64,000 nucleotides of DNA. It comes from a virus. Its lineage: Duplodnaviria; Heunggongvirae; Uroviricota; Caudoviricetes. The DNA lies in the IMG/VR virus record IMGVR_UViG_2645727901_000008, one strand, 5' to 3'. Of the stretch, positions 20,167 through 43,511 are shown one piece after another. How positions within the stretch are numbered: the first letter of the stretch is position 1; each line of letters starts with the position of its first letter. Below the pieces are notes generated by a model, which saw only the letters and a list, made by a program, of their open reading frames with translations, had not been told where the DNA came from and did not search any database. The position numbers were made by a program, and so were the translations under genes.

Positions 20167-20844
20167 TCACTCCACTACAAACCAGTCACATGCCAGTAAG
20201 TCGCCTACAGAAGGAACCCACGGAACAACTACACCTTGTGCATTTTTTAAGGCGAAATAAGCACCATACGGAACGAGGTCGCCGGGGAAATATCCCTTAA
20301 TGGGTTCCATTCGTGCCGGGTACTGTCCTTCAGGAACCAGCCAGCAGAATTGGTTTTCGCCGTTCCACCCGCGTCGAGCAACTTTCTTGCCATCCTTCAG
20401 CCACATCAGCGCGTCAGAAAAGTCGGCTGCTTCAAGGTCGATTTCTTCTTGCTGGGTGGTGATGCCACCAGCAGAAATAGTTACGCTCCCGGTAAGATTA
20501 ATCATCACGCCGTTGTCATCCGTAATGATGACCGTGGTTCCATTTTTGGCGGCGTCGTTAACCAGGCCATAGCGTTCCTCAAATGGTTTCTCCGGGGCAT
20601 AGAACAAATAACCGTTTTCATAAACGATCAGATACCCGCCAGTTTTTGGTCGGTGTTTTTGTAAAAACATTGCGTCAACACAAACTGTTGCCCCTTTTGG
20701 CTCAACGAGTTCGATGCAGCCCCAAAGTGGGGCATCAGTTACTCCGAAAATAACAACATTTTTGATTTTCGATGCACTAACGTTTTTGTGAGCTTTGTAT
20801 TTGGGAAGGAACTTAAAAAGCTCTTTCGTTGCCATGTTATTCAT
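20167..20844 (-). CDS. phage protein with C-terminal DUF2829-like module
   Basis: C-terminus WLKDGKKVARRGWNG...WVPSVGDLLACDWFV matches the 66-aa proteins at 43311 and 34221. Confidence 0.6.
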   Translation of the reverse strand: MNNMATKELFKFLPKYKAHKNVSASKIKNVVIFGVTDAPLWGCIELVEPKGATVCVDAMFLQKHRPKTGGYLIVYENGYLFYAPEKPFEERYGLVNDAAKNGTTVIITDDNGVMINLTGSVTISAGGITTQQEEIDLEAADFSDALMWLKDGKKVARRGWNGENQFCWLVPEGQYPARMEPIKGYFPGDLVPYGAYFALKNAQGVVVPWVPSVGDLLACDWFVVE

Positions 20845-20858
20845 AGTCTTTTCTCTGC

Positions 20859-21353
20859 TTATAACTTTTCGTACTGAAGCGGTGAACGCTTAATTTCAAA
20901 GTGGCCTTCCGATGTGCTACCAAAGCCACCAGCACCACGTTCCGTTTCGTTGAGTTCCTCAACCTCGACTAGTGAGACTTGTTCAACACGCTCAAAAATG
21001 CCTTGCATGACAGCCATTCCTGGCTTGAGACAAACGCCTTCCCCGCCGGGATCAGTAATCAGTTTTGCCATGATTTCACCGCGATAATCGGAGTCGATAA
21101 TTCCTACGCAGTTAGCCAGGCGAGTATGTTTTTTGCAGCCCAATCCGGATCGCGGATAGAGTTTCAGACACCAGCCGGGCGGGATCTCCATAGCCAGTCC
21201 GGTATACACCCACCAGCTTGAGGAAATTGCACCATTGCTATCGACGCATGTTTTTATTTCAACAGCCTCAAAATCCATCGCCGCCGATCCGGAGGTGGCA
21301 TAAGCTGGAAGTTTTGCTGCCGGATGTAGGCGTTTCACTTTTACGTAAATCAT
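20859..21353 (-). CDS. dut: dUTP diphosphatase (dUTPase)
   Basis: All dUTPase motifs present: AAMDF, YPRSGL, GIIDSDYRGE, RGAGGFGSTS. Confidence 0.85.
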   Translation of the reverse strand: MIYVKVKRLHPAAKLPAYATSGSAAMDFEAVEIKTCVDSNGAISSSWWVYTGLAMEIPPGWCLKLYPRSGLGCKKHTRLANCVGIIDSDYRGEIMAKLITDPGGEGVCLKPGMAVMQGIFERVEQVSLVEVEELNETERGAGGFGSTSEGHFEIKRSPLQYEKL

Positions 21354-21826
21354 TGTTTTTTAGCTCTCTGCGTGAAGGTGTAAACCCGACGTTTGATATG
21401 TGGAACGGTAGGAACAGGAAGACAGGAACTTTCAATAACCCCTTGCTCCTCCAGCGATCGCACCGCCCGCAAGAACTGCGACGTGTCGCCGCCAAACTGG
21501 CGGGCATAGGTGCTGCCGTTAAGAAGTATTTGAGCTATTACCCGAGCTTTTGTCTGGCTGTCACGATATGCGAATAGCCGCACGGCCTCTTCTGGCGCAA
21601 TCGCTAACTGATAGCCTTTACCGGCACGGTGTCGAATGAATCCATGCGCCAGTAGGTTTTTGAGTTCGTTACGAGTGCGAACAGATCCGTAATCCAGGAA
21701 GTGCGGATTAATAACGACTGGCTTAAACCATTCCGTAGGTGCTTTAGCTAATAGAGCTAACAGCTTTCCGGACAATTCTGGATAGGAAGACGGGTAACAA
21801 TTCAGAGATGGGTAATAAGTTTTCAC
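21350..21826 (-). CDS. hypothetical protein (possible winged-helix DNA-binding)
   Basis: 158 aa; overlaps neighbours by 4 nt on both sides. Confidence 0.5.
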   Translation of the reverse strand: MKTYYPSLNCYPSSYPELSGKLLALLAKAPTEWFKPVVINPHFLDYGSVRTRNELKNLLAHGFIRHRAGKGYQLAIAPEEAVRLFAYRDSQTKARVIAQILLNGSTYARQFGGDTSQFLRAVRSLEEQGVIESSCLPVPTVPHIKRRVYTFTQRAKKQ

Positions 21827-22167
21827 CGACGCCCCCTTGCAGGATATCGACCTGCATCAGTATCCGGTGCGATAAAGCCGGTAGTGGGGCGAGTGAAAGC
21901 GAGATTAATCTTCTCGACCATAGTGCGATAATTTTCCTGATAGTGGGCCAGGAGTTTTTCGGCGGCAATGATGGTTACTTTCCGGACGTAGCTTTCTGCT
22001 TCCTCCAGATTTCGCCAGTTTTTTTCGAGGGTAAACACAGGGACGGCCTCAAGCCCGGTCATGATGCCGAATACAACGACAGCATGACTGTTCTTAACAC
22101 CAGCAGCGAAGGTTACGGTGTAACCATCCACCTTAAAGCGTCTTGATTCCGTGATTTGACTCTGCAA
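21823..22167 (-). CDS. hypothetical protein, first gene of the dut operon
   Basis: 114 aa; operator-like motif about 55 nt upstream. Confidence 0.5.
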   Translation of the reverse strand: MQSQITESRRFKVDGYTVTFAAGVKNSHAVVVFGIMTGLEAVPVFTLEKNWRNLEEAESYVRKVTIIAAEKLLAHYQENYRTMVEKINLAFTRPTTGFIAPDTDAGRYPARGRR

Positions 22168-22221
22168 AGCACCCTCCGAAATAGGCGAGGGTACTTTACA
22201 GCAAAGATAACAATCTAAAAA

Positions 22222-22241
22222 GATGTGTTAGAAATTTAATT
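22222..22241 (+). promoter_or_regulatory. operator-like motif copy (TGTGTTAGAAATTTAATTTA)
   Basis: Near-identical to the copy at 45988-46007; between the dut operon start and the recombinase stop. Confidence 0.4.
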
Positions 22242-23269
22242 TATGAATCCATCAGGCGGCTATTAGCCCCCACAGACACGCCGCCACGGCGCAGATACCG
22301 CATAAGTGTTTCCGGTTTCTTCCAGGTTCCTTCCTGCATGATCTCCACCATAGACACCTGCTTTTCAGCCATATCGATAGCGGCCCCGACACGAGCACTA
22401 TGCCCGGTCCACGTCCGGTATCTCCCTTTGTTTGGCGTGGCATCTCTTTTATTCAGCAACACCCAGGCGTCGCTGAATATTTTCTCCATTGCAGGTGCAG
22501 TAAGGGGAGTTGTCGTAATCCTGGCCTTATTGCTACGGTGTATCGGCGGGAACAGCACCGCGTCAGGATGTTCACGAAGCCCGGAAACATCCAGCCAGTC
22601 ATTCAGCACTGCGGTAGTGCGACGGGAAAGCACCTTATCAAGCCCGGCGGCGGTCGTTATTGTCTTCGTGTGTGAAATATGTAGCGTGACAGTGTCACCT
22701 GTTTGGTCCAGATCTCCTACACGAATACGCGAGATTTCAGACATTCGCATCAGCGTATTGTATGCAACGAAGAGGAAAGCCCGGTTACGCAGGTCCACCA
22801 GCCGTTCTGACCTGGACAACAGGACGTCGAGCAGTTTCAGATCGTCCCACCGCAGCGGTATAGCCTGGCCTGTTCGTTCGCCTTTTTCCGTTGCCGCTTC
22901 GCGCCGGATGCGCCGCATAGCCAGAGAAACACTTTTATCATCCGAAAGTGGCGGAAGGCCACAATGCGAAAGCAGCATGTTAAGCATGGCGTAGTGCTTA
23001 TCAATGGTGGTCGAAGCCAGATCAGCATCATGCAGCTGAAGAAAATACTCGCGGGCCATCTCTGGTGAGATCGGGAACCAAGCGAGCTGGCGAGCGTGGC
23101 ACCATCGCGCCCAGGAGTGAAACACTAACCGGAGATCGCGCAAAGTATTCGGCGCGTAAGCCCCCTGGTCATTCATGAACCGCATAAAGTTTTCTGCGGC
23201 CTCCTGGTACTCTTTGCCAATGTTGCGCAGAAAACCACCGGAGCTGCCAGAGATAATTAATTCACTCAT
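22241..23269 (-). CDS. dre: Cre-family tyrosine recombinase (Dre-like)
   Basis: 342 aa; C-terminal catalytic region RYRTWTGHSARVGAAIDMAEKQVSMVEIMQEGTWKKPETLMRYLRR aligns with Cre (...WSGHSARVGAARDMARAGVSIPEIMQAGGWTNVNIVMNYIR); a rox-type 14-4-14 site lies about 150 bp upstream. Confidence 0.85.
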   Translation of the reverse strand: MSELIISGSSGGFLRNIGKEYQEAAENFMRFMNDQGAYAPNTLRDLRLVFHSWARWCHARQLAWFPISPEMAREYFLQLHDADLASTTIDKHYAMLNMLLSHCGLPPLSDDKSVSLAMRRIRREAATEKGERTGQAIPLRWDDLKLLDVLLSRSERLVDLRNRAFLFVAYNTLMRMSEISRIRVGDLDQTGDTVTLHISHTKTITTAAGLDKVLSRRTTAVLNDWLDVSGLREHPDAVLFPPIHRSNKARITTTPLTAPAMEKIFSDAWVLLNKRDATPNKGRYRTWTGHSARVGAAIDMAEKQVSMVEIMQEGTWKKPETLMRYLRRGGVSVGANSRLMDS

Positions 23270-23420
23270 GAAACTATTTAACCTCTATATACAGATGACG
23301 CTACGCAAAAATATAAAAATGACAGGGTAGCTATAAGTTAATTTTCAAAATTCAAGCCTTTGATTCGAGGCACGTATTTTTAGTGATGTCAACACTGATC
23401 ATCTACCCATGATTATAGTC

Positions 23421-23452
23421 TAACTTTAAATAATGCCAATTATCTAAAGTTA
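23421..23452. other. lox/rox-type recombination site (14-bp inverted arms, 4-bp spacer)
   Basis: TAACTTTAAATAAT-GCCA-ATTATCTAAAGTTA; arms are inverted repeats with one mismatch; differs by one base from the rox site as I recall it. Confidence 0.8.
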
Positions 23453-23625
23453 GAAACTTAGGAATTTTTTTCCTTTCCCCGTAGATGGGCAATGCATTGC
23501 TGGCGTGGGCTTTAAGTTATGCCTGGCAGTTTTTAAGCAGAATTTTCTAAATTGGATGACAAAAAAATGCATCTTGATCCTTTACTCACCCTGTTATTCG
23601 GCATAGATTTGTCATAGTAATTTTA

Positions 23626-23645
23626 TGTTAGAAAACTAAATCGAG
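23626..23645 (+). promoter_or_regulatory. operator-like motif copy (TATGTTAGAAAACTAAATCG)
   Basis: About 12 nt upstream of the 23654 start codon. Confidence 0.4.
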
Positions 23646-23653
23646 TAGGAATA

Positions 23654-24691
23654 ATGAGTAAGAAGTCGATCGAGAAAGAGTACAAACGGTTCCTGCAAAC
23701 CGCTGAACGGTGGAAAGAGCTGGTGGTCGCAAACTCTGTTTTCCATGATACCAGTTATGCCGGCGAGGAATTCCGCCACGTTGCACTAACACATGATCAG
23801 AATGTACTAGAAGAAGCTGAAAAGTGCCTCACAGAATGGAAAGCCTTTGTTGACTTGTGCCGTAACGCTGACGGCAAAGCGTCCAACATTGTTGAGTCTG
23901 TATATTCTCCGATCCCATTCATTATTGAGGACACAAATCAAAGCACGCATATTGTTGTGCAAAGCGCGACCACCACCCGCTCATTTACGCGCGAAAATCT
24001 GCTCAAAAAATATGATGCAATTATAAAGAAAAGCCTGAAAAACAAGATATTTTCGCAGATTGTTGGTGCACTTGAAGAAGAGCGCCGTTTTTTCGCATCA
24101 GAACCTGAAGGGGAAGTTTACCGGGCGCGCAAAGATGGATACACAGATGTAGTGCTTACAACAAACATTGAAGGCAGCAATGCTCTGTCACGATTCAGGG
24201 TAGGCGCACACGGAGCCTTAGTGTTCGCAAAACTTCCGAACACCACAGTGCCCGTTGTTAATAATGTCGGCGAACGTCGCAGCATTACTATTTATTCTGG
24301 GGTTGAGTCGATACCTTGCGGCCTGCTTGGTGACTTTAGCCTCTATCGCGTTCGCGATCTGGAGAAACACCAACCAAGCTATGTTGCGAAGTCATATATC
24401 TTGCGAAACATCGACATCCGCAATGAGAGCTTAAAGAACAAATCAGCCAAAATGCTTGAGGAAGCCGATCCGGCTATTCGCCATATCATTGAGCGTAAAA
24501 TACAGACAGCACGCGAAGCGATGGCGAGACTGAATAAAATGGATCTGGAGTTGTTAGACGTAATGATGACATCCGGAGATGACCTGACAGGCATAAAACT
24601 GACAGACGCGCGGAAAAGATACGGTAAAACCATAGAAGAACGTTACGGGTTCACTTTCTCCCAAACACAGCACGCCGCTAAACTCTGGTAA
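23654..24691 (+). CDS. hypothetical protein at the c1-equivalent position between the recombinase and pac genes (candidate regulator)
   Basis: 345-aa ORF divergent from the recombinase; operator-like motif just upstream; no recognisable similarity to P1 C1 by eye. Confidence 0.55.
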   Translation: MSKKSIEKEYKRFLQTAERWKELVVANSVFHDTSYAGEEFRHVALTHDQNVLEEAEKCLTEWKAFVDLCRNADGKASNIVESVYSPIPFIIEDTNQSTHIVVQSATTTRSFTRENLLKKYDAIIKKSLKNKIFSQIVGALEEERRFFASEPEGEVYRARKDGYTDVVLTTNIEGSNALSRFRVGAHGALVFAKLPNTTVPVVNNVGERRSITIYSGVESIPCGLLGDFSLYRVRDLEKHQPSYVAKSYILRNIDIRNESLKNKSAKMLEEADPAIRHIIERKIQTAREAMARLNKMDLELLDVMMTSGDDLTGIKLTDARKRYGKTIEERYGFTFSQTQHAAKLW

Positions 24692-24716
24692 TCACAAGCC
24701 CCGCATTGCCGGGGCT

Positions 24717-26225
24717 TTATATATCCAGATCTGGCATTTCCACATCTGCAAGAACCTGATCGCGGAAGGTAGCCATTTCAGCGCCGATATCTTCATTAGC
24801 AGGAACATAGTCCACCAGCATTGTAAAGCAGTAGGTATCCCATCGGTCAGGTGATTTGATGTTCAGCTTTTGCCGCATGTGCTCCTTGCGCATCATCGCC
24901 ATCTTCCCTTCTTCATTAAGTAAAAAGGGGATTTTTGACGCTTGCTCTGCCGTTTTAGGGTCACTGTCTATTCGCATACGACCTGACTTTATGGCATCAC
25001 GAGCCATAATATTTGCGTAGGCACGTTGGTTAACAAAACGCTCCTTGTCTTTGTTCGAAAACATGGGTTTCCCCCACCGAATACGTACCGGATTAGCCCC
25101 ACGGCGCACCAGCTGCGCACAGGTATCTGAACCAAAACCGTCTGCGTCAACCGCGATTGTAATATTCGGGTATTTATCCGGCGTGCATTCGTTGTATATA
25201 AAGTCAGCAAAAGCCAGCGGGTCCATAGTCCCTGGCATTTCCATTATCTTAAAGTTAACAACGCGCCGCTTATTCCTGTGACCTGACACCTTGCAGATGT
25301 TAAGGACCGACTTGTCTCGCCCGTTCCCAACGTCAGCTGTCGCTACCCACCCCCAATTTTTCTCCAACAACACCTTGCGCCGCGCAGCGCGATCGCATTC
25401 ATCACGACCAAGCAAATAGCCGTTAATCTCCCGAGGGAACTGACCAAGCACCTTAACCATATACTCAATAGAATCGCGCCCGCCATATTCCAGGAGTTTC
25501 TGCCTGATGAATTGTGGTGTGACGAACGGTGATTCTTCTGAGTTAAGAACAATTGCTGTCCAGATCCCTTTCGGGTTGTCTGGGGTTTTAGCTTGAGAAT
25601 GGTGCGAATCGTAGAAATAACCACTTGGCCTTGTTGGCTGGGATAGCATCAACATTCGGTTATCTTCTTCAGTAAGAGCACCGGTCATTACGCCGATCGC
25701 CTTATCAGATATACCAGATGCTTCATCCAGAATTAGAAGCAAATGTGCCGCGTGTTCCCCCGCCAGCGCTTCTTCGTTGCCGAGTCGATAACCTTTGCAG
25801 AGAACTTCCCAAATCCCCTTACGGGAGCGCTCATAAAACATGGTGTCAGAGAGGACAAAATAGGTCTGCAACCACCCATGACGCTTAACTGCATTCGCCC
25901 AATACTGTTTAACGTATTTGAATACGCCTGTTTTTACCTGGCCTATCTTGTTAGCAACAATGATGACACGGGCATCGGGGAACAGGATCATAAAAATCAA
26001 CAGCAACATCGCGGTAAGGGACGACTTCCCCGTTCCGTGTCCGGACGTGACGGTAGTCCTACTCCCCGTTTCCTGCACTGACTGAATGATCTGCTGCTGC
26101 TGGTGGGAGGGGAACATCCCAAAAATATCGACAACAGCCTGGGTAAAGTTGTAGCGGTATTTGATTACCATATCGCGCCAGCGTGGATCGCTGGTGACGC
26201 ATTTAATCTTGCGCCCGCCAGCCAT
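24717..26225 (-). CDS. pacB: terminase large subunit (PacB-like)
   Basis: 502 aa; Walker A-like SGHGTGKSS; LILDEAS Walker B-like; position and size match P1 pacB. Confidence 0.75.
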   Translation of the reverse strand: MAGGRKIKCVTSDPRWRDMVIKYRYNFTQAVVDIFGMFPSHQQQQIIQSVQETGSRTTVTSGHGTGKSSLTAMLLLIFMILFPDARVIIVANKIGQVKTGVFKYVKQYWANAVKRHGWLQTYFVLSDTMFYERSRKGIWEVLCKGYRLGNEEALAGEHAAHLLLILDEASGISDKAIGVMTGALTEEDNRMLMLSQPTRPSGYFYDSHHSQAKTPDNPKGIWTAIVLNSEESPFVTPQFIRQKLLEYGGRDSIEYMVKVLGQFPREINGYLLGRDECDRAARRKVLLEKNWGWVATADVGNGRDKSVLNICKVSGHRNKRRVVNFKIMEMPGTMDPLAFADFIYNECTPDKYPNITIAVDADGFGSDTCAQLVRRGANPVRIRWGKPMFSNKDKERFVNQRAYANIMARDAIKSGRMRIDSDPKTAEQASKIPFLLNEEGKMAMMRKEHMRQKLNIKSPDRWDTYCFTMLVDYVPANEDIGAEMATFRDQVLADVEMPDLDI

Positions 26226-27589: not shown

Positions 27590-27978
27590 AAAGCAACACC
27601 ACGCTTTTTAACGGCGGCATTCCACAGCTTATTCGCCATGTCCACCAGCTCTCGTTGCTCTTTTCGCGCCTGTTCGACTGATTTCCTGCTACAGTTTTTA
27701 ACCAGTAAGCTACCGTATTCAGGCGTGCGCCCGCGCACCTTGAACTGATATCCGTTCAGACCATGTAGCCAATATTTTCGTGGATACACACGATCATCCA
27801 GCTCACAGATTGCCCTGCTTGAACGAACAAAATGACGAATGATGTTAGTTACACTTACTCGTGAAACATGGAGATGAGGGTATTTTTCTTTGGCGAGAGT
27901 GGTAATTTCAGTGACTGTCAGATAGCAGTCAGCCCTGATCATGATATCCGCAATTTCTGCGCTGCTGATTTGTTCCAT
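27586..27978 (-). CDS. small regulatory-type protein upstream of the pac genes (Lpa-like position)
   Basis: 130 aa; first gene of the pac operon; weak operator-like motif at about 28056-28075. Confidence 0.5.
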   Translation of the reverse strand: MEQISSAEIADIMIRADCYLTVTEITTLAKEKYPHLHVSRVSVTNIIRHFVRSSRAICELDDRVYPRKYWLHGLNGYQFKVRGRTPEYGSLLVKNCSRKSVEQARKEQRELVDMANKLWNAAVKKRGVAL

Positions 27979-28055
27979 TAATCCCCCGGGCAGGAAATGA
28001 CCGAGGGGATGATAATGAGAATGTTAAAACTGTATAGACTGGTAAAAAGATGATT

Positions 28056-28075
28056 ATATTAGAAAATTAATATTA
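28056..28075 (+). promoter_or_regulatory. weak operator-like motif copy (ATTAGAAAATTAATATTAAA)
   Basis: Partial match to the dispersed motif, upstream of the pac operon. Confidence 0.25.
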
Positions 28076-28086
28076 AATACCTAACG

Positions 28087-28479
28087 CTACCAGCGAGACA
28101 AACGAACAACATGTTTCACTTTTGCGATCCACTTTCCGCGATAACTATTGATTACGGCCTGTGCCAGCTTCAAATTGGCTTCAAAATCAGCCTTACTACC
28201 ATCAGACTCCACCAGCATTCCTCCATCTATTTCTGGTAAACATAGATAATCCTGCTCAACCTGCAGCGGCATTGATGGCTCTCTGAATGGCGTTACTTGC
28301 TCTGCTTTCCAGCGAAATCTAACCCTCATCCCCCTGGTGGTCATTACTAGATAGCCTGTTATAGTGCTTTTATGGCCCACATCAGTACGCGTGGCATTGC
28401 ATGACACGATCTTACAGTTAGCGATAGACCACTCCATATTGGTGGCCTGTTGAGTGCTTAATTTGGTAGTCCCGTACAT
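28087..28479 (-). CDS. hypothetical protein
   Basis: 130 aa; coupled to the upstream gene. Confidence 0.5.
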   Translation of the reverse strand: MYGTTKLSTQQATNMEWSIANCKIVSCNATRTDVGHKSTITGYLVMTTRGMRVRFRWKAEQVTPFREPSMPLQVEQDYLCLPEIDGGMLVESDGSKADFEANLKLAQAVINSYRGKWIAKVKHVVRLSRW

Positions 28480-29054
28480 CAGAAAGCCTCCCAGTCAGTC
28501 GCGATAATATCCACACCAGTTGCAAACCAGTCTGTCTGCGCCTGTAAATCACCATTCATCATTACCAGGCGAGGCATCACCATCACATCGCACCCTTCCA
28601 CAATATCGAATGCCTCTTCCGGCAAGAATTCGAAGAGCTTTTCTTTGCTGCCAATGCTGCCACGGAACATCGATATATAGCTCCCTTTAGGCCATGATGT
28701 CCGCCGGGCATCAAGCCCTTTCATCATCCAGTAAAAAGCCGAGGAAAAAGGGATATTCTTTTTGCCAATGATTACATTATTCGCTTCTGTGTACTTCAGG
28801 AACTTAACTAACCTTACCATTGACTCGGATAACGCAACGTATGGCTCATGATTGATTGCTGACACGCTTACACCGTGCAATCCAACGCTTACCACTGTCA
28901 TATCGCCGCTTTGTGCGGTTTCGATATTGACGCCTTTGCGAACTAATGAGGCGTAAAGTTCCTCTCGCTTTTGGGTCCAGCGTTCACGCTTCCCTATGAA
29001 GTCACTCAAAATGAGATCTTCTTCTGCATATGCGTTATCGTTCGCCATTAACAT
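28479..29054 (-). CDS. phage protein with C-terminal DUF2829-like module
   Basis: C-terminus FYWMMKGLDARRTSWPKG...TDWFATGVDIIATDWEAF. Confidence 0.55.
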   Translation of the reverse strand: MLMANDNAYAEEDLILSDFIGKRERWTQKREELYASLVRKGVNIETAQSGDMTVVSVGLHGVSVSAINHEPYVALSESMVRLVKFLKYTEANNVIIGKKNIPFSSAFYWMMKGLDARRTSWPKGSYISMFRGSIGSKEKLFEFLPEEAFDIVEGCDVMVMPRLVMMNGDLQAQTDWFATGVDIIATDWEAF

Positions 29055-29508
29055 AACGTCTCCTTTTTTACACGCGCGACTATCCCCCGGAAGTACCGGT
29101 AGTGATGTCGTAACTTCGTATTAATTAAGGGGTACAGCCTGAGCGGCTATATGATGAATTGAAAGGAGTTGTGGCGGTGGTGCCTCCACCTGCCAGGTTA
29201 GCCACTCCCGGCGACGTCACTTATCAGAACGTAGTGAATGAAAATGGCTTCGTCACGAGCGCATAGCCGCAATTACCACAACGGAAACGGCGCTCACGCT
29301 AATTAAACGCCTTTTCCTGTTGTGCGCCGTACTCTTCCGGCTGTCACACCGAATCGCCAGGATGGTGAGTCCTCGGTCCGACGATATGAACGGGGCTTGC
29401 ACATTCCGGCTACCTGGTTTGTTGCCTGAGCTAGGGGAAAAGGTAACCCCTTTAACGTCACCAGACCGCTAACGACGCATGTGCCATACGCCGTGTTACA
29501 ACCAAATA

Positions 29509-29584
29509 TGGTGGCCCCTACCGGACTTGAACCGGTGACCGTGCGATTATGAGTCGCCAGCTCTAACCACTGAGCTAAAGGGCC
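29509..29584 (-). tRNA. tRNA with CAU anticodon (Ile2/lysidine-type, or Met)
   Basis: 76 nt with encoded CCA; sequence is very close to E. coli tRNA-Ile2 (ileX) as recalled. Confidence 0.85.
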
Positions 29585-29594
29585 AATTAGTGTT

Positions 29595-31111: not shown

Positions 31112-31187
31112 TGGTGCCGATTAACGGGATCGAACCGCTGACCATTCGCTTACAAAGCGACTGCTCTACCAACTGAGCTAAACCGGC
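31112..31187 (-). tRNA. tRNA-Thr (anticodon UGU)
   Basis: 76 nt; canonical cloverleaf; anticodon loop TTTGTAA; T-loop GGTTCGATCC; CCA encoded. Confidence 0.85.
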
Positions 31188-31191
31188 AATT

Positions 31192-31278
31192 TGGTGGGGA
31201 GTGATGGAGTCGAACCACCCGAGTCGCAATGACAGTAGATTTACAGTCTACCCCGCTACCCCTACGGACTAACTCCCC
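31192..31278 (-). tRNA. tRNA-Tyr (anticodon GUA), class II
   Basis: 87 nt; acceptor GGGGAGT/ACTCCCC; anticodon loop CTGTAAA; long variable arm. Confidence 0.8.
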
Positions 31279-31283
31279 TAAAG

Positions 31284-31360
31284 TGGCGATGGTGGGTGGA
31301 TTCGAACCACCGACCGACAGCTTAGAAGGCTGCTGCTCTATCCTACTGAGCTACACCATC
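31284..31360 (-). tRNA. tRNA-Arg (anticodon UCU)
   Basis: 77 nt; anticodon loop CTTCTAA; T-loop GGTTCGAATCC; CCA encoded. Confidence 0.8.
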
Positions 31361-33924: not shown

Positions 33925-34239
33925 TTATTGTGTCATTGCCTGGTAGATAAAATACACGATGCATACCGGTACGATAGCCCATTGCAGCAATGAAAGCAGC
34001 CTCATGGCTGTCATGGGAGTAACTCCATCTACGTATTCCTTCTCTGACATTTTCCCTAACCAACTAACCGACAAAAGGGTCGAGTTCTCCCCCATTTCCA
34101 GCTCCCTGAGGGCTTCCCGGATTAAAGGCGCTGTTACCACCTTGCGGGCAGTGTTGAGCGTAATGCTCCGCGTCCTCCCGGCGTCATCGGCAAACGCCAG
34201 GTTCACATGATATTTTTTGCTCAATGTACAAACTCCCAA
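33925..34239 (-). CDS. small membrane protein
   Basis: 104 aa; C-terminal TM helix LSLLQWAIVPVCIVYFIY. Confidence 0.5.
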   Translation of the reverse strand: MGVCTLSKKYHVNLAFADDAGRTRSITLNTARKVVTAPLIREALRELEMGENSTLLSVSWLGKMSEKEYVDGVTPMTAMRLLSLLQWAIVPVCIVYFIYQAMTQ

Positions 34240-34421
34240 TCATTGGCTTTCGCGCTTTCCGGGGTAATGCATACCTTGTCGCCGGTAACTATGTTTCGGG
34301 CTTCTAATGCCCCATCATCCATCTTTTTAAGCTCTATACAGAAAGAATGAGGCCATGAGCAGCGACGAGCAACAACGTTAGCACCAGCAGGGATAAGTTC
34401 AGCCACGTTAAGTAAACGCAA
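34221..34421 (-). CDS. DUF2829-like small protein
   Basis: 66 aa; VARRCSWPHS...ANDWEFV matches the other DUF2829-like copies. Confidence 0.5.
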   Translation of the reverse strand: MRLLNVAELIPAGANVVARRCSWPHSFCIELKKMDDGALEARNIVTGDKVCITPESAKANDWEFVH

Positions 34422-34435
34422 AACGATTTCTCCGT

Positions 34436-34879
34436 TTAATCAAGACAAACATATTCCGTGATAGCTTTTATGGCTTCATCGGCACTGCGCGCCTCAAAGC
34501 AGTAATAGCCTGCTTCCGTGAGGCGAGTCATCCAGACGAGCTGTTCGGGAGTCAGACGGTTTCTCCCGTGCTTCATCTCAATGCGCATTCCGTGATACCC
34601 ACCACGAGCAAGGTCAATAGAAAGGTCCGGATAGCCCTTCTTCTGACCTTCTGCCACCATCTTAATGGCTGTCCTTTTGCCTCTCAGGCCGCCGTTCGGT
34701 GTTGAGTGTGTGTGCTCATACACGTATCGCATGTTGCGATACAGCCAATCCAGAACGCGAACCTGTTCGTAATGTTCGTAATTCCGTTTTAATAAGTCAG
34801 GATTTCTTTCTAACTCTCTCAGTGCAGCAGCGTGCGGGGATATTTCAGAATACGCACTATGATGCCTGCGTCTTCGCAT
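34436..34879 (-). CDS. VRR-NUC domain nuclease-like protein (PD-(D/E)xK fold)
   Basis: KKGYPDLSIDLARGGYHGMRIEMKHG carries the PD...E.K motif; operator-like motif directly upstream. Confidence 0.6.
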   Translation of the reverse strand: MRRRRHHSAYSEISPHAAALRELERNPDLLKRNYEHYEQVRVLDWLYRNMRYVYEHTHSTPNGGLRGKRTAIKMVAEGQKKGYPDLSIDLARGGYHGMRIEMKHGRNRLTPEQLVWMTRLTEAGYYCFEARSADEAIKAITEYVCLD

Positions 34880-34880
34880 C

Positions 34881-34900
34881 AAATTTCTAACACAAACTTA
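34881..34900 (-). promoter_or_regulatory. operator-like motif copy (TGTGTTAGAAATTT on minus strand)
   Basis: aaaTTTCTAACACAaactta on the plus strand; immediately 5' of the VRR-NUC start. Confidence 0.35.
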
Positions 34901-35328: not shown

Positions 35329-35330
35329 GG

Positions 35331-35765: not shown

Positions 35766-35801
35766 TCAAATTCGGCCCCGGTTGGGGCCGCTCCTTATCT
35801 G

Positions 35802-38800
35802 TTAGGCCGCATCGGCGATTATTTTACGCAATTCATCTACCGAGTAACGCGTAGATACCATCCATGCAGGACGGTCAAAGTTCACATCAGCAACCGGGTT
35901 TGCTTCAAAATTCCAGAAACGCCCGCCAATCTTCTTAATCGCGTCTTTGGCGTTCCGTATTGTCGAGGAACCAGGTTGGTCGGCAATGAGATAAACCGCA
36001 CCGACGTCCTCGCTGACACTCCACCAGCGCCCGCGAACACGCGCCTTAGCGCGAATCGGCTTATCATTAACCACAATGATATAGTCATCATTCGCCGCTT
36101 CATCAGCTCTGGCTTCAGCCACTGCCGCCTGCTCTTCTCTTTTGCTTTCAGCCTGTTCAAGCCTTTCCGCGATCTCTGATTCGGTGGCCCCGCCGTTTTT
36201 CAGCGATACATAGTCTTGCCACGTTGCTGATTTGAGCGCATCCGGCAACTCATTCACATAGTCACCGTCTTTCAACTCACGGGCGCGGCGGGTAGCCATT
36301 TCTACCAGGCGATTAACAGAAACAGCATCAGCAAAATCGTCCTTACTAATGTGTTTTTCATCAAATGCATTGATGACAGCCCCCACCTTAATCCACTGCG
36401 CTGCTGGCGAATCCAGAGGATTATCGGCCTGAACAATGGCTAATTTCGCTCCATCGACACCATTATTAGCCAGCTGCTCCAATGCCGACCAGCCATCGGC
36501 ATCGCTGAGTGATTTATATTGCTCAAACAATGCATCGCGCCAGGCCACCAGCGCAGCTCGTGTTTTCTCAATTTTCGCCGTAATTTTCGCGGCCTTCACC
36601 TGATTAAACATCCGTTCAATGTCATCAGTGTTGCTAAAGGCTTTCATCCTGCCCTGGAATAAACGGTATGCCACCACGGTCTTCCAGAAAGATTCCAGCC
36701 CTTCTCCGGACGGTTTACGGAACAGGCTAAGAATATCTTCAGAAGTAACTTTATTAAGTGAGCGACCGGACAAACCACGCCCTGCCATCCAGTTTTCAAA
36801 CTCCTGGGAAACATCATCCATCGTGGCCTGTGACCCCCATGCCTGCATTCCCTGGATGTAATCATATCCATACAATGCCTGGAGGAATCCCTCGCCGTCC
36901 ACGACATTCAGCGGGTTATCACTGGCTTGTATTTTTGCCACTTCACGCTTCAGCGCCTCATCGTTGCCATCAGGGTAAATCCACCGCTCAGGCGCTATAT
37001 CCGATGCTCGCCCGATTTTTTGACCTATTACGCCATCATAAGCCGATGACAGTGCAATCTGACCATCATCGGTGCGATAAGCCCAGTATTTAATAGCTGA
37101 ACCACCGCCCCATACTCTACTAGGCTTCCCGGCAGTGACATTCATTACCCCATTGCGAATAGCATCATAGAACTGATCGCGCGTAAGTGTTGTTGATAGC
37201 TGGTGGCATTGAACACCACGTGCAGCTGTTTCACGCGATTCTGCAACTCCCTCTTCAAAGGTTACCGATTCAATTATCAGGTTAAAGGGCAAAAATAATG
37301 CCGTCCCCGGAGAACGAGAGTAACGACTAGCCACATCCAGCCAGGATATGCGGCACGTACACCCGCCCCTTTCCGCATCAATGGCGGTAACACGAACAAT
37401 TGCTGTCGTATTGTGATTCTCATCGATGATCGCGCGATAATGGCTGCCCTTGTGCAACAAGATATTTTTCTCAGTGCGTACATACTCCTGTGGGTTCTGC
37501 AATACATCGGCATCAAGCTCCAGAACCCCGGCTTTAATCGCACGTTCCAGATCACCACGAGAACGTTTCATAACGGTGTCAGCGTCTTTAGCTCTGGTGA
37601 TCGCAAAGCGTAGCTCCCGCACACGTTTTCTGTAGTCTCGCAACTGTTCCAGAACATATTTCTGCCCGTTCCTGTTCGTCCCCGCTTTAATCAGGTCGTC
37701 AAGATTGCGCTGGTAATGCTCTACCTGCTCCATCGCGCTTTTCAGTTCTGTCTCCATCATGCCGATATCTTTCCCGGCAGCATTCGCCGCTTTCAGGTAG
37801 TTATCGAGAGCATTATTGGCTTCGCGTAGGGCTTTCAGTTTCAGACGTTCTTCACGCTCTTGCGCCTGACGACTCATGATTGCACGGCGTTCTTCCGGAT
37901 TTGCCGCCAGCATAATGGCGCGTTCATCTGCGTCATCCGCATCACCATTGGCGATCTCTGACATGTCGGAGGTCATCACCATATTGATCCAGTCCTTCTT
38001 ACGTTTCAGCGTATCCAGACGGAAGTCATCAAATGTGCCTTTGCCACAATAGTAGTGAACATTGACCTTTTCTTGTGGTGAGCCTACCCGAGCGCCGCGC
38101 CCATTACGTTGGTCGATACTGGCAGGAGTCCAGGGTAGTGTCAGATGGTGGATATCGGTTGTCCCGATGTGCAAGTTAATACCTACTTCAGCCTTCTTGT
38201 TACAGATTATGATGCGCGTGCGACCTTCGTTATAGTCGGCGGCAATACCTTCCATGCCCTCAAGGCCAGCATCATTTTTAGCTGAGAGATAATCCTCATA
38301 TTGGGCAAGTTTGCTGTAGTAGGTTTCCCATGCACCTTCTTTGTATTCACCGTTTTTATTTGGCGTAGGTTCAGTCGGCTTATTCACCTTCTTCAGCTTG
38401 ACGCCGCCAGCCTGGCTAACTGTCGTCGCATTGATAATGCCTATCTCCTGCTCCGGCATTTGCAGTGCACTGGCAATAATACGGCGCAGCTTCTGGTGCT
38501 GGGCTTTTTCATCAATGAAGACGATTTGTTTACCGTTCTTCAGACCTTCACGAAGGTTTTCGATCAGCGCGGCATACTTCGGCGGGATGGGGTGTGATAC
38601 CTGCTGCATATCAATACCGGCAGCCGCAATGGCCTTCAGTATTTCAGCTTCCAGTTCAATGCCAGCACGTATTTCAACATGCGACGGATGTTCGCTAAAG
38701 GTGGTCTTCACTACCTTGCTGGCACGCGTACTGACCAGCCCACCAGCGCCATCTTCTTCGGCCTCGTCTACATCATCTGCCACTTTACCGCCAGCTACTT

Positions 38801-41800
38801 TTGGCAGGGCATCAGCAATAGCTTTTACCTTGTCTGCAAGCTCAACGGGGAACTGGAATGTAATCGCACTGGCATACAGATCAGGATCTATAGCAACCTT
38901 ATCCATGTCGCGGATGATGGAGAAGATGAAATCATCCGGTTTTTCGTTTGTGATATGCCCGTTTTCATCGACCGTCAGCGCATCTTTACTACTTAACTCC
39001 TGTGCACGCTTACGAAGTTCTTCGTAAATGGCCTCTTGCTCTCCTGTCATCGGGATCTGCAAGGTATTCTCGACAATATCAGGGATTTTTACCGTCGCCC
39101 CGACGTCCGCAGCAGTCTTCAGAGTAGTCCAGCGATGGAAAATACCACGCAGACCATCCAGGTTCTGGAAGCCCACCAGTCCCTGCTTCTCTTCCACCTC
39201 ACCGGAAATTTTCTGAACCTGAACTGTGGCTGTTTTACCGAACACGCGAACGAAATCATCCGGCGTAACAATACCCATGCGCATCCACTCTTCCTGCGGA
39301 ATGACAGTAGACAGCATGTTGAAAGCATCAATCGGGCTGTTCACCAGCGGTGTTGCCGTCAGCATAACCACACCACGCCCGTTGTTGCGTTTCATCATGT
39401 ACGCAGCTTTTACAGCCATGTCGCGGGCCATTTTGGATACTGCCGGGTTAGGCAAATATGCCAGTTGCCCCGCTTCGCGCCCGGCGCTAAAGGAGTTGCG
39501 GTAGTTATGCCCTTCGTCGGCAATTACGCTATCGAAGTTCATATCCTCAAAGTACGGGATATTCTGCTTCTTCGTTGTACCGGTATTTGCGGCCTGGTCC
39601 TTAATCTTGTTCTTCTTCTGCGCGTCACGGTGTTTGCCAGATGCCAGGTCAAGACGCCCCATTTCCACAGCATTAAAGACCGCTTGCTGTGAGTTTTCCT
39701 CAATGGTTTCTTCTCGTAGCGGGATAGACGCGAATTGCTCTTTTGTCATGATGACCGTTCGCCAATTTGACGACGGGATCATGTTCATGCGCTGAACGAT
39801 AACGGCGCTGGCGGACTCTTTCACAACATTTCTGGTAAGAGCCTGCCCGTTACTGTCGAGGCGTGGTTCGCCATTTTCATCAAGCACCGGCGCGGTCAGA
39901 ATATTTCCGCTGTCATCACGAACTTCATCCAAACCGATAAACATCATATTGGCGAAGGCATCAGAACTGTAGAAACTCTGTGCCTCGTGATACCAGTTCT
40001 GATAAACCGCCTTCGGAACAACAATACACGTGCGTTTAGTGCGACCTGTTTCGAAGTTATACGCCTCAAGCGCAAGCGCGGTCGTGGTTTTACCCAGCCC
40101 GGTGCCAAATCCCATGATGCCGCGCCCATCTTCTGATAAGCGACGAACTTCTTCATTCTGATAAGTCAGAGGAATGCGCTTCCCACTAATCCCCTCCAGG
40201 CCAAGCGGTGCGTCAGAATGCGTAAACGGGATGAAGCCATTAAATGCGTCGTTATAGTCGCGGGCTATCTGATCAGCCTGCGGGTGAGTGCGTAACCAGT
40301 CGTTGAAGCTAATTTCCAGTTGAGCAATCTTATCCAGGTACTCGTTAGCGTTCTGCCCACGCGGTTTAATGCCGTTCAGGTAGTTTTCTAACTGGTTCAG
40401 GAAGCCGTCTTTATTGTTGGCCTTCTTGAACTCATTCCCGTTTTTGCCGTTTACGGTTCGTAGTTGATAGCCAGTAAATACCCCGTCCTTACCTTCGTAA
40501 TCGTCCGGAGATACCAGAATGCCGTCCTCAACCTTAAGGTCGGGTTCTGTATACTTAAACTCGTCATAGCCCTGCTCTGCCAGGAACTCTTTTATCAAGC
40601 GGCGATCCAGCCAGCGGGCGTTCAGATTAACGGTGACTTTATTTAGTGGCGTGAAAATGCGTTTCTCTTCGATTTTCGCCAACTGACGCTCAAAGTTCGC
40701 TTTCTGCTCACCTGTTGACGCATCACGCCAGCCCACCAGCAATGCTGTTTTGGTTGCAATATCGCCGCTGGTGGCGCGGTCCATCGGCAGCAGGCAGCCA
40801 TACCCATCAATAGCGATATCATCAAATTTCGCCAGGTATTCCAGAGCAGCATCGTCGTCTCCTGGCAGTTCGCCAGCAAACGCCTCACGAAAATCGTCCA
40901 GTGTGATTGGATTAAGTGCCACGTCACTGAAAAGGTGGGTTACAACTTGTTCCGGGCGTGTAAAGTCAATACCGGCAGCACCATCCGTTACATCAAGTCG
41001 TCCAGCAAGGAGGTCAGAAGCAGAGCCGTCCTGTTTCACGTTGCCAGTGAAAGTCATCCAGTTTTTAGCGCCAGCTTCAGCAATCCCATTCAGCTTAATC
41101 GCGTGCGGCGGACCATACTTCGCAATTTCGGCTTCCGCCAGGCGCGCGGCATCAGCAAGTACATCATCAACATTTTCCCCCAGATTACGCTTATCAAGCG
41201 CCTTGTTGATCAACTGCCCTATCAGTGCGCCGCGCATAACGCGTTCTCTGTCTTTTTCTCTCTGCTTGCCAGCAAAGCGAATCATTGCCGCTACTTCATC
41301 ACTGATAACCGATGGATAGTCGGACGCGATCGCCGATATCTGGTCCCATGACAACGCCAGAATGCCATTTGTTGACTGAAACGCGATCTGCAGATCACCA
41401 AACGTCGTAACACCATATCGATTTACATCAAGCGCGGAGGATTTGGTTGTCGCGTCCTTGACCCATTTCAGACCATCAAACTCATGCCAGATGCCGCCTA
41501 CAAGGCGTTTATCGCCCACTTTCGCGCCCTGCCATGCCTGAGTAGTTACGCCAAGCAAATCCCAATTAATGCGGCTTTCAAAGCGGCGCGATAGAGCGGT
41601 TTTCATCGACTCATTGGATACACGACCGTCCTTTTTCACCACCAGGGTATTGCGGAAGCTGGTACGCTCCATATCGCCGTAAACAAATCGCTTCCCTTCG
41701 GTTGTAAACCATTTTCCTTTGAGGAAGGTATCCCAAAGGACGTTTGCCGATTTGAGCGTTGCATCATCCGTGTCGGGGATCATCTCCAGGAAGGTTTCCG

Positions 41801-42641
41801 GGTGTTTACGCAATACCCATACGTCCACCACGGTATCTGTACCGGATTCGCTGAACGTACCAGAAGGCATACGATGTGCGCCCAAAAATTCCGCTTTACG
41901 GCTGACTTTATCGCGCAATTTTTTGTATTTCGTACCATCGGTCATGCCATTCGGCACCACCAATACAATTAGTCCACCAGGTTTAACCTTGTCGATCGTG
42001 CGCAACACAAAGTAATTGCCAACGTTCTTCTCGTTTGCATATGCCGGATCAAGCCCGGCAACGCCGGAACGCCCTTCACCAAACGGTACGTTACCAACAG
42101 CGTGGTCATACATTGCGTCTTTCGCCGCCAGCGCCTCAAACGCCCCGATATTCACATCGTCTTCCGGGTGCAAAAGCTGGTTTATTCGACCGGAAATCGG
42201 AGACAGTTCGGCGCTGGTCATTATCATGCCCTGCCGTTTTGTCTCCTGGAAAATACCTGTGCCCGCTGATGGTTCCAGTACGTGCCCACCATCAATACCG
42301 TAGTCAGCAAACAGATCCCATATACCTTCAGCCATAAACTGTGGCGTGTAGTATTCGTATTGGCTGCCCTCACCATCTGTCAGGCCGCCTTCACCGGTAT
42401 ACCCGGCAAGAATCTGACGTTGTTCGTCAGTTAATTTCGCCCCATCGAAGCCGGGCGGAAGGGAATTAAGAAGATTTACTGCGGCATTGTTTGCTGCCCG
42501 GCGTGTTTTCTGAATACTGACGCCATCGGCTTTCCTGACGCCAAAGGTCGCAACAGCACGTAATTTATGCAACCGACTAACAATTTCAATCAGTTCGCCT
42601 AAGCTGGAGGCTTCACTGATTGAATGAAGTAGTTTGTCCAA
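35802..42641 (-). CDS. darB: giant DarB-like protein: N-terminal SAM-dependent DNA methyltransferase domain plus SF2 (DExH) helicase domain
   Basis: 2279 aa; MTase motif I VLEPSAGTGIF and NVPFG; helicase Walker A GFGTGLGKTT, motif II VIADEGHNYRN, motif VI RNGRGARVG; size and architecture match P1 DarB. Confidence 0.8.
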   Translation of the reverse strand: MDKLLHSISEASSLGELIEIVSRLHKLRAVATFGVRKADGVSIQKTRRAANNAAVNLLNSLPPGFDGAKLTDEQRQILAGYTGEGGLTDGEGSQYEYYTPQFMAEGIWDLFADYGIDGGHVLEPSAGTGIFQETKRQGMIMTSAELSPISGRINQLLHPEDDVNIGAFEALAAKDAMYDHAVGNVPFGEGRSGVAGLDPAYANEKNVGNYFVLRTIDKVKPGGLIVLVVPNGMTDGTKYKKLRDKVSRKAEFLGAHRMPSGTFSESGTDTVVDVWVLRKHPETFLEMIPDTDDATLKSANVLWDTFLKGKWFTTEGKRFVYGDMERTSFRNTLVVKKDGRVSNESMKTALSRRFESRINWDLLGVTTQAWQGAKVGDKRLVGGIWHEFDGLKWVKDATTKSSALDVNRYGVTTFGDLQIAFQSTNGILALSWDQISAIASDYPSVISDEVAAMIRFAGKQREKDRERVMRGALIGQLINKALDKRNLGENVDDVLADAARLAEAEIAKYGPPHAIKLNGIAEAGAKNWMTFTGNVKQDGSASDLLAGRLDVTDGAAGIDFTRPEQVVTHLFSDVALNPITLDDFREAFAGELPGDDDAALEYLAKFDDIAIDGYGCLLPMDRATSGDIATKTALLVGWRDASTGEQKANFERQLAKIEEKRIFTPLNKVTVNLNARWLDRRLIKEFLAEQGYDEFKYTEPDLKVEDGILVSPDDYEGKDGVFTGYQLRTVNGKNGNEFKKANNKDGFLNQLENYLNGIKPRGQNANEYLDKIAQLEISFNDWLRTHPQADQIARDYNDAFNGFIPFTHSDAPLGLEGISGKRIPLTYQNEEVRRLSEDGRGIMGFGTGLGKTTTALALEAYNFETGRTKRTCIVVPKAVYQNWYHEAQSFYSSDAFANMMFIGLDEVRDDSGNILTAPVLDENGEPRLDSNGQALTRNVVKESASAVIVQRMNMIPSSNWRTVIMTKEQFASIPLREETIEENSQQAVFNAVEMGRLDLASGKHRDAQKKNKIKDQAANTGTTKKQNIPYFEDMNFDSVIADEGHNYRNSFSAGREAGQLAYLPNPAVSKMARDMAVKAAYMMKRNNGRGVVMLTATPLVNSPIDAFNMLSTVIPQEEWMRMGIVTPDDFVRVFGKTATVQVQKISGEVEEKQGLVGFQNLDGLRGIFHRWTTLKTAADVGATVKIPDIVENTLQIPMTGEQEAIYEELRKRAQELSSKDALTVDENGHITNEKPDDFIFSIIRDMDKVAIDPDLYASAITFQFPVELADKVKAIADALPKVAGGKVADDVDEAEEDGAGGLVSTRASKVVKTTFSEHPSHVEIRAGIELEAEILKAIAAAGIDMQQVSHPIPPKYAALIENLREGLKNGKQIVFIDEKAQHQKLRRIIASALQMPEQEIGIINATTVSQAGGVKLKKVNKPTEPTPNKNGEYKEGAWETYYSKLAQYEDYLSAKNDAGLEGMEGIAADYNEGRTRIIICNKKAEVGINLHIGTTDIHHLTLPWTPASIDQRNGRGARVGSPQEKVNVHYYCGKGTFDDFRLDTLKRKKDWINMVMTSDMSEIANGDADDADERAIMLAANPEERRAIMSRQAQEREERLKLKALREANNALDNYLKAANAAGKDIGMMETELKSAMEQVEHYQRNLDDLIKAGTNRNGQKYVLEQLRDYRKRVRELRFAITRAKDADTVMKRSRGDLERAIKAGVLELDADVLQNPQEYVRTEKNILLHKGSHYRAIIDENHNTTAIVRVTAIDAERGGCTCRISWLDVASRYSRSPGTALFLPFNLIIESVTFEEGVAESRETAARGVQCHQLSTTLTRDQFYDAIRNGVMNVTAGKPSRVWGGGSAIKYWAYRTDDGQIALSSAYDGVIGQKIGRASDIAPERWIYPDGNDEALKREVAKIQASDNPLNVVDGEGFLQALYGYDYIQGMQAWGSQATMDDVSQEFENWMAGRGLSGRSLNKVTSEDILSLFRKPSGEGLESFWKTVVAYRLFQGRMKAFSNTDDIERMFNQVKAAKITAKIEKTRAALVAWRDALFEQYKSLSDADGWSALEQLANNGVDGAKLAIVQADNPLDSPAAQWIKVGAVINAFDEKHISKDDFADAVSVNRLVEMATRRARELKDGDYVNELPDALKSATWQDYVSLKNGGATESEIAERLEQAESKREEQAAVAEARADEAANDDYIIVVNDKPIRAKARVRGRWWSVSEDVGAVYLIADQPGSSTIRNAKDAIKKIGGRFWNFEANPVADVNFDRPAWMVSTRYSVDELRKIIADAA

Positions 42642-42792
42642 AGGATTTCCCCCTCTAAACCGTAAAAAATTCCGCTATGCGGTACGGTTGAGAGGGTATG
42701 GAGAATGTTATTTTCAGGGGGACGATACTACCGTCAAAATCACATACTCCCCATAGTTTGCCTACTTATTAACCCATGACCGGGAGAAAAAT

Positions 42793-43278
42793 ATGGCAAA
42801 CATTGAACCTCGCTGGCTAATTGAAGCCCGTAAGCACATTGGCCTGACTGAAATAAAAGGCGCTAAACACAACCCTGAAATCGTTCAGTTCTGGCGCGAC
42901 ATCAAGCGCGGCGGAATTAAAGACGATGAAACGCCGTGGTGCGCAGCATTTGTCGGTGCAATGCTGGAACGTGTAGGCATCCGCTCAACAAGATTTGAGT
43001 CGGCAAAATCCTATCTGGATTGGGGCGAGAAATTAGATACACCGGCATACGGATGTATCGTTGTATTTACCCGCGTAGGCGGTGGGCACGTAGGCTTCGT
43101 TGTCGGACGCCGTGCCAATGGCGATCTGCTTGTCCTGGGTGGGAACCAGGGGGATGCTGTTAATATTCGCGCATTCCCAACATCAAGAGTGTCTGGCTAT
43201 CGCTGGCCTGCTGGCGAACCACGCAATACCGCTCTGTTACCAGTCGGAGACGCAGCAACCTCAACTAATGAGGCATGA
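42793..43278 (+). CDS. cell-wall hydrolase-like protein (CHAP / NlpC-P60-like, TIGR02594-type)
   Basis: Cys...His pattern (ETPWCAAFVGA ... GGGHVGFVV); GGAG-type RBS. Confidence 0.55.
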   Translation: MANIEPRWLIEARKHIGLTEIKGAKHNPEIVQFWRDIKRGGIKDDETPWCAAFVGAMLERVGIRSTRFESAKSYLDWGEKLDTPAYGCIVVFTRVGGGHVGFVVGRRANGDLLVLGGNQGDAVNIRAFPTSRVSGYRWPAGEPRNTALLPVGDAATSTNEA

Positions 43279-43281
43279 AAA

Positions 43282-43305
43282 AAGCCCCGGCCAGGCCGGG
43301 GCATC
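43282..43305 (-). terminator. rho-independent terminator
   Basis: GCCCCGGCC-loop-GGCCGGGGC followed on the minus strand by TTTTTT. Confidence 0.5.
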
Positions 43306-43310
43306 ACGCT

Positions 43311-43511
43311 TCAATTCACGATCCAATCATTACCGACTATATCAGCCGTCGATAAATCAACTTCCCGGATCTGGAGTCCATTAATACAAAACCATCCGGT
43401 AGTAGAGTAATTATCAGGCCAGGCCCATACACCAACACTCCATGCTTTACGGCGGCACACTTCAGCCTGTCCTTCCCTGATTTTTTTTACCGCCTGCATG
43501 ATGTCCATCAC
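43311..43511 (-). CDS. DUF2829-like small protein
   Basis: 66 aa; start overlaps the Rha stop (ATGA); CRRKAWSVGVWAWP...GNDWIV. Confidence 0.6.
   Translation of the reverse strand: MMDIMQAVKKIREGQAEVCRRKAWSVGVWAWPDNYSTTGWFCINGLQIREVDLSTADIVGNDWIVN

Follow-up and report, generated by a model that had tools for sequence, protein, structure and literature searches.

We analysed a 64,000-nucleotide stretch of viral DNA (IMG/VR record IMGVR_UViG_2645727901_000008), hereafter the window, and find in it five divergent copies of one small protein module, which we label A to E in their order along the DNA (Table 1). With moderate confidence, we propose that they are a small set of paralogs which share the Tad2 fold and come in two structural grades: B and C end in full-size domains, while the C-terminus of A, E and D would be 65-residue cores. 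In Pfam, the domain is PF11195, formerly DUF2829 and today called "Tad2-like"; phages use it as a sponge for the signals of Thoeris, CBASS and Pycsar. Tad2 proteins act as homotetramers that sequester small molecules used in immune signalling. At the DNA level, the window shares 93% identity with Escherichia phage D6 and 93-97% with about 100 non-mobilizable plasmids (around 90 kb) of E. coli, Shigella and Salmonella, which places it among the D6-type, P1-family phage-plasmids of E. coli. In D6, the counterparts of the five genes are orf82, orf114, orf6, orf11 and orf17.

All five open reading frames (ORFs) carry the motif Arg-Arg-x(1-2)-Trp about 20 residues into the module and close it with Asp-Trp followed by 3-4 residues. 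Across the 758 stop-to-stop ORFs of the window, the strict pattern RR.{1,2}W.{30,75}D[LIMV].{2,3}DW matches A, B, C and E, and a relaxed version with a looser C-terminal part matches all five; in 200 residue-shuffles of the same ORFs, the mean number of chance matches is 0.005 and 0.015, respectively. The recurrence of the signature is far above chance. Profile searches across all window ORFs recover the same five copies and no sixth, and the complete D6 genome also contains exactly five. Pairwise identity among the copies ranges from 17 to 45%.

The first-pass annotation, a model's reading of the letters and ORFs, had already listed these five copies, and their positions, lengths and minus-strand orientation all stand; the range under which it filed them, 20167-43511, leaves A outside. 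It gave the signature as RR.(S/A)W...W near the start and D(L/I)..(N/C)DW at the end, which is approximately right: B reads RRGW, C ends in DIIATDW and A in DMVAMDW, and D lacks the first Asp. Its module length of roughly 65 residues fits A, D and E but falls short for B and C, where an N-terminal helix was overlooked and the domain measures about 89-93 residues, with an insertion of 20-30 residues relative to the mini-modules.

The membership of B and C in the family is straightforward. Against a PF11195 gathering threshold of 25 bits, B scores 80.1 bits (E-value 1.7e-22, residues 141-224) and C 39.1 bits (1.1e-9, residues 103-190); the earlier description "DUF2829-like" is thus upheld by Pfam for these two, while A, D and E stay below the threshold. 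NCBIfam gives nothing useful for any of the five. The last 89 residues of B match ModTad2 (PDB 9eib/8v3e) with 45% identity (E-values 1e-19 to 1.5e-20), and B also matches AcrIIA7/HgmTad2 (8kbi) and SPO1 Gp34.65 (8sme; 36% identity, 1e-8 to 1.6e-9). For C, a profile of the window protein and its Shigella and Pantoea homologs aligns over 75 columns with a profile of diverse canonical Tad2 proteins (hhalign 96.6%, E-value 6.7e-10). The motif ARRxSWP is common to C, D and A.

The ligand contacts known from publications on SPO1 Tad2 (W25, N26, W73, S76, T78 and D79) and on HgmTad2 were mapped onto the five copies and their families. The Tad2 fold runs from an N-terminal helix through an antiparallel β-sheet to the short helix α3 and a terminal strand. 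In the canonical pocket, the ligand is held by van der Waals contacts from W25 and W73. An insertion between β2 and β3 (SPO1 residues 36-59) contributes helix α2 and a V-shaped dimer; it also builds a second pocket, for cyclic dinucleotides or cyclic UMP (cUMP), in HgmTad2 and ModTad2. The two elements of the signature correspond to the W25 loop and to the D79…D84-W85 segment of SPO1 Tad2.

All five copies keep a tryptophan equivalent to W25. Beyond it, B retains N26, G27, W73, S76 and D79, with Gly in place of T78; C retains W73 and D79, with Thr for S76 and Pro for N26; E and A retain D79, have Ile or Val at W73, and do not conserve N26. D retains W25 only, its D79 site being Ser, Ala, Cys or Glu across the D family. 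The W73 site is occupied by Ile, Val, Glu or Phe in every member of the A, E and D families. Each of these members has a distance of 39 residues between W25 and the terminal tryptophan (W85), compared with 60-61 in B, SPO1 Tad2 and ModTad2 and with 67 in C; the roughly 21 residues absent from the mini-modules correspond to the β2-β3 insertion. The short modules would thus represent a bare Tad2 core minus half of the canonical pocket. Because both the insertion and W73 are missing, and in D also D79, they are unlikely to bind glycocyclic ADP-ribose (gcADPR) or histidine-ADP-ribose (His-ADPR) in the canonical way.

Within the short modules, A and E are clear paralogs (45% identity), and the C-terminus of A matches phrog_7385 (5e-16). 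D aligns with the E/A profile over 60 columns with no internal gaps (hhalign 86%, E-value 4.9e-6; none of 300 column shuffles reaches the score, z=10.4). Run against the 758 window ORFs, the D profile finds as its best non-self matches E (2.9e-4), A (7e-3) and C (0.086). Word-indexed homolog searches return close relatives only, five proteins for D and three for E, and our first profile-profile tests, at an effective number of sequences (Neff) of about 1.4, were uninformative. Six further, divergent members of 66 amino acids came from an exhaustive hidden Markov model (HMM) search with the D profile; the three weakest matches of this search, repeat proteins, were discarded.

The link from A, D and E to Tad2 is weaker than the links among the three, but it is consistent across methods. 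The E/A profile aligns with a combined Tad2+C profile over 62 columns (hhalign 68.5%, E-value 4.6e-5), a score that none of 300 column shuffles reaches; the same is true of the merged mini-module profile, while one shuffle in 300 does so for D against Tad2+C (a local match only) and for E/A against Tad2 without C. PF11195 is the top Pfam family, below threshold, for all nine E/A members, which it aligns end to end with a best E-value of 0.0066. In the window and in D6 alike, the best outside match of the merged mini profile is C (2.6e-3 in the window), with both motif blocks in order. Finally, the few Tad2 representatives among 48,164 ranked chains come first and third for E, and third and seventh for D. 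A and E are likely to be Tad2 derivatives on this evidence, and we hold the same for D somewhat less firmly.

Several results weigh against this kinship. A, D and E do not reach the PF11195 gathering score, the best being E with 14.9 bits (E-value 0.04); window D receives no PF11195 match, and two of the ten D-family members reach an E-value of 0.15. PDB sequence searches with the E/A, D and merged profiles retrieve no Tad2 chains; their matches to Fc-gamma receptors and endonuclease I (E-values above 0.02) were treated as noise. Compared with canonical Tad2 without C, D and E/A align by hhalign over 13-35 columns at low probability, and the exhaustive D-profile search found no bridge to annotated Tad2 proteins. 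In structure prediction, a check suggested by the first-pass annotation, Foldseek finds no Tad2 for the D model in the PDB, and the E model has a predicted local distance difference test score (pLDDT) of 63 and was built on three sequences. The family alignments are shallow (Neff 1.4-3.3). The non-canonical roles that we suggest below for A/E and D, with low confidence, have gene context as their sole basis.

These negative results, together with the loss of half of the canonical pocket residues, would suit an explanation in which only B and C are Tad2-like and the 65-residue modules belong to an unrelated SH3-like β-barrel family, their resemblance being convergent or due to chance. Such a family would have to account for PF11195 leading, end to end, in nine of nine E/A members, for an E/A alignment that spans the full length and survives shuffling, for the high ranks of Tad2 representatives, and for C as the best non-family match of the mini profile in two genomes with the blocks in the right order. 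In addition, the 21 missing residues coincide with an insertion known to vary within Tad2. We consider this explanation unlikely, though it deserves to be taken seriously, and retain common descent from Tad2.

Table 1 Location of the five module copies and of surrounding features in the window (aa, amino acids; sRNA, small RNA)
Feature	Position	Strand	Description
Copy A	5362-6288	minus	308-aa Rha/Ant anti-repressor; C-terminal 65-aa mini-module at residues 244-308 (5365-5559)
Icd-like gene, cassette 1	6288-6503	minus	phrog_1426 5.5e-41
C4 antisense RNA, cassette 1	6558-6645	minus	Rfam RF01695 77.1 bits
isrK-like sRNA, cassette 1	6690-6768	minus	Rfam RF01394 62.7 bits
Copy B	20167-20844	minus	225 aa; N-terminal extension at residues 1-~135; canonical Tad2 domain at 137-225 (20170-20436)
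Copy C	28479-29054	minus	191 aa; lineage-specific N-terminal domain; divergent Tad2-like domain at ~99-191 (28482-28760)
Four tRNA genes	29512-29584 and 31115-31360	minus	Rfam
Copy D	34221-34421	minus	66-aa stand-alone mini-module between the VRR-NUC gene and a pmgR-like gene
VRR-NUC (pmgM-like) gene	34436-34882	minus	Pfam VRR_NUC 9e-6; immediately upstream of D
DarB-like ORF	35802-42641		2279 aa
CHAP-domain protein	42793-43278	plus	161 aa
Copy E	43311-43511	minus	mini-module ORF; 66 aa from a GTG start, 65 aa from the adjacent ATG
Ant2, cassette 2	43508-44215	minus	235-aa Rha/Ant anti-repressor with no fused module; Phage_pRha 6e-9; phrog_63 positions 127-358/431
Icd-like gene, cassette 2	44215-44439	minus	phrog_1426 5.7e-39; "Icd-like" in the D6 annotation
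C4 antisense RNA, cassette 2	44487-44572	minus	Rfam RF01695 70 bits
c4-a1b1 target element, cassette 2	44641-44693	minus	Rfam RF03163 51.5 bits

The genomic context of A and E is peculiar. A had been described as fused to Rha, and this is confirmed (Phage_pRha, E-value 1.1e-6; phrog_63 Ant, 1.9e-62). At two places in the window, a C4 RNA is followed by an Icd-like ORF and then by a Rha-family anti-repressor, the arrangement by which a P1-type immI region is recognized; judged by gene order and family matches, the window contains two paralogous immI-type cassettes. A is colinear with Ant2 and E taken together (59% identity over 313 columns), the break falling in the linker, and the stop codon of ant overlaps the start of E as TGATG. 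By this colinearity and junction, E is best described as a C-terminal domain split off from an Ant paralog rather than an independent stand-alone gene, as it had first been annotated; D alone keeps that description. The earlier impression of one module deployed repeatedly is consequently overstated, since A and E come from one duplicated cassette, leaving four independent contexts instead of five.

The stop/start overlap suggests that translation of E is coupled to that of Ant. Programmed frameshifting that would join Ant2 and E was considered but seems unlikely: the junction has no canonical slippery heptamer, and TGATG suggests termination-reinitiation. D6 preserves the split (orf17/orf18), as do about 120 plasmids, the majority of them with both the E and the A places. 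Among 50,697 deposited phage genomes searched by tblastn, D6 is the sole carrier of the Ant-linked module. Convergent with E, between it and the DarB-like ORF, lies the gene of a CHAP-domain protein, whose match to a baseplate-hub/tail-lysozyme PHROG is confined to the C-terminal end of the latter (positions 987-1146 of 1179).

D stands in a different neighbourhood, a block with the order darB, ulx-like gene, small ORF, VRR-NUC gene, D, pmgR-like gene and pmgS-like gene. This order is retained in contigs whose D homologs share 33-44% identity with the window protein, and a VRR-NUC gene also neighbours D in four of these more distant family members; judging from such synteny, D is a fixed member of the darB-ulx-VRR-NUC anti-restriction/morphogenesis block. 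Across the D family, the two genes are always adjacent, either 12-15 nucleotides apart or overlapping by 4 nucleotides. Their neighbourhood hints at a functional pairing of the nuclease with D.

B adjoins a dUTPase gene and lies near a Cre-like recombinase gene; C is upstream of lpa and pacAB. Four tRNA genes separate the C/lpa/pac region from the pmgS/darB block, a position that matches the tRNA cluster annotated in D6, P1 and P7. Residues 1-136 of B (window 20437-20844) precede its Tad2 domain. Residues 56-126 weakly resemble the OB-fold and the beginning of the β-helix stem of phage L Dec (PDB 6E3C, E-value 0.005), and one phage homolog of residues 11-95, from Ralstonia phage AhaGv, bears the annotation "head-tail adaptor". 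Eight close homologs of the B domain bear various unrelated or truncated N-terminal extensions behind which the junction (E)IDLEAADF is conserved, and the D6 version of B (orf114, 29127-29567) has only 146 residues; the N-terminal part of B-type proteins seems to be swapped as a module. As for C, two of its plasmid homologs (L130, 1501-2076; L131, 1300-1884) are named 'MW1434 family type I TA system toxin' in RefSeq. We followed this label as a functional lead and dropped it, the sole paper found merely listing MW1434 as a predicted toxin. Since the C-terminal domain aligns as Tad2-like, the label looks misleading.

We now propose functions for the five copies, whose biochemical activities we infer from the homologies and gene contexts described above. 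According to the best-supported reading, B would be a genuine Tad2 sponge: a homotetramer that, by analogy with the family, binds ADP-ribose signals derived from TIR (Toll/interleukin-1 receptor) proteins in pockets between its protomers. As its closest solved relative, ModTad2, binds His-ADPR and cUMP, B may weaken abortive infection of the Thoeris type, and possibly of the Pycsar or CBASS type, during infection by the element or upon its induction. C, a divergent full-size member in which the Trp pair and Asp are kept and the loop and insertion altered, probably acts as a sponge that prefers another ligand. Ligand binding is a plausible role for B and C; for the mini-modules it is unproven. 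The latter would keep the helix, the β1-β2 "RRxxW" element and the terminal "DW" strand of the fold. Because the module is either fused to Ant or overlaps directly behind it in the duplicated C4-icd-ant cassettes, in A and E it could serve as a C-terminal accessory domain of the immI anti-repressor, for oligomerisation or regulation. D might be a small partner protein that works with the proteins of the darB-ulx-VRR-NUC block.

An alternative would assign all five copies to a battery of active sponges, each for a different immune signal (3'cADPR, His-ADPR, N7-cADPR, cyclic dinucleotides, or cUMP/cCMP). The Tad2 family has indeed diversified, as experiments show, over exactly these ligands, sometimes with two pockets per protein; all five copies have the W25 equivalent, and E and A have D79 as well; D sits within an anti-restriction block, and the element as a whole is rich in anti-defence genes. 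Yet the insertion from which the V-shaped dimer and the second pocket (for cyclic dinucleotides or cUMP) are built is absent from the mini-modules, as is W73, the partner of W25 in holding the ligand, and two of these three modules are physically linked to an anti-repressor instead of being free proteins. We regard such a battery as quite improbable.

Somewhat less probable still is the adaptor proposed in the first-pass annotation, by which the module would bring Rha/Ant and the N-terminal domains of B and C to one common protein: SH3-like folds often bind proteins, and one module does stand behind different N-terminal domains, with several unrelated extensions among B homologs at the conserved EIDLEAADF junction, but every characterised family member is a small-molecule-binding homotetramer with no protein partner known, HgmTad2/AcrIIA7 is reported not to interact with SpyCas9 and to show no reproducible anti-CRISPR activity, and at 17-45% identity the surface residues of the modules are very different, which argues against a single shared partner. 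The other role named there, that of a sensor, would fit B and C in the sense of ligand binding. Applied to the Ant-linked module, a sensor function would mean that it perceives a host immune nucleotide signal, made upon activation of a defence system, and switches on or stabilises Ant, coupling immunity to induction. We consider this highly improbable; were it true, the prophage-plasmid would derepress and leave a cell committed to abortive infection, and a sponge fold would have been re-used as a sensor.

Part of this picture was already known. Tad2/AcrIIA7 has been published for 93% of D6-like and 56% of P1-like phage-plasmids (10.1101/2025.09.12.675607), so copy B is not new, and RefSeq homologs of B already carry the DUF2829 label. 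We found no paper connecting DUF2829/Tad2 with anti-repressors; judged by their listings, the papers found do not point to several DUF2829/Tad2 copies per genome either. Three things appear to be undescribed: the insertion-less 65-residue forms, the way in which they are fused to the immI anti-repressor or split off from it, and the fixed place of D in the darB block.

Tad2 sponges are a main known phage route past signalling-based immunity, and the family has diversified over many ligands. If the proposed kinship is right, one mobile element keeps the Tad2 fold at five places, including a minimal, insertion-less form that lies below current Pfam thresholds and is tied both into the lysis-lysogeny switch, through Ant, and into the Dar anti-restriction block. 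Should the mini-modules bind ligands, they would define a minimal Tad2 pocket and widen the set of detectable anti-defence genes; should they bind none, they would exemplify a sponge fold put to new use as an accessory domain of proteins. In practical terms, the gain is modest: a better annotation for about 120 D6-type phage-plasmids of E. coli, Shigella and Salmonella, and a correction of the 'MW1434 type I toxin' label on RefSeq homologs of C.

Among named systems, the nearest to B is ModTad2 (also MoTad2) from a Myroides odoratus prophage (8V3E, 9EIB), a sponge for His-ADPR of type II Thoeris and cUMP of Pycsar. The two domains align end to end, are equal in length and insertion size, and are identical at W25, N26, G27, W73, S76 and D79. 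Unlike the 89-residue ModTad2, B has a 135-residue N-terminal extension and a Gly at T78. SPO1 Tad2 (Gp34.65; 8SME), a sponge for the 1''-3' gcADPR of type I Thoeris, has the same domain as B; in contrast, A, E and D have neither its residues ~36-59, with helix α2 and the dimer interface, nor W73, and C differs from it by Pro at N26 and a longer insertion. HgmTad2/AcrIIA7 (8KBI), whose long insertion of 41 residues accompanies the binding of cyclic dinucleotides as well, differs from the mini-modules, which have no insertion, and from C, whose insertion is intermediate in length and unrelated in sequence.

For the surroundings of A and E, the closest parallel is immI of P1, with its C4 RNA, icd and ant1/ant2 genes, an order that both window cassettes follow. 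While P1 immI has been described with one cassette, here it is duplicated, its anti-repressor belongs to the Rha family, and this anti-repressor either carries a putative Tad2-like mini-module or is followed by one.

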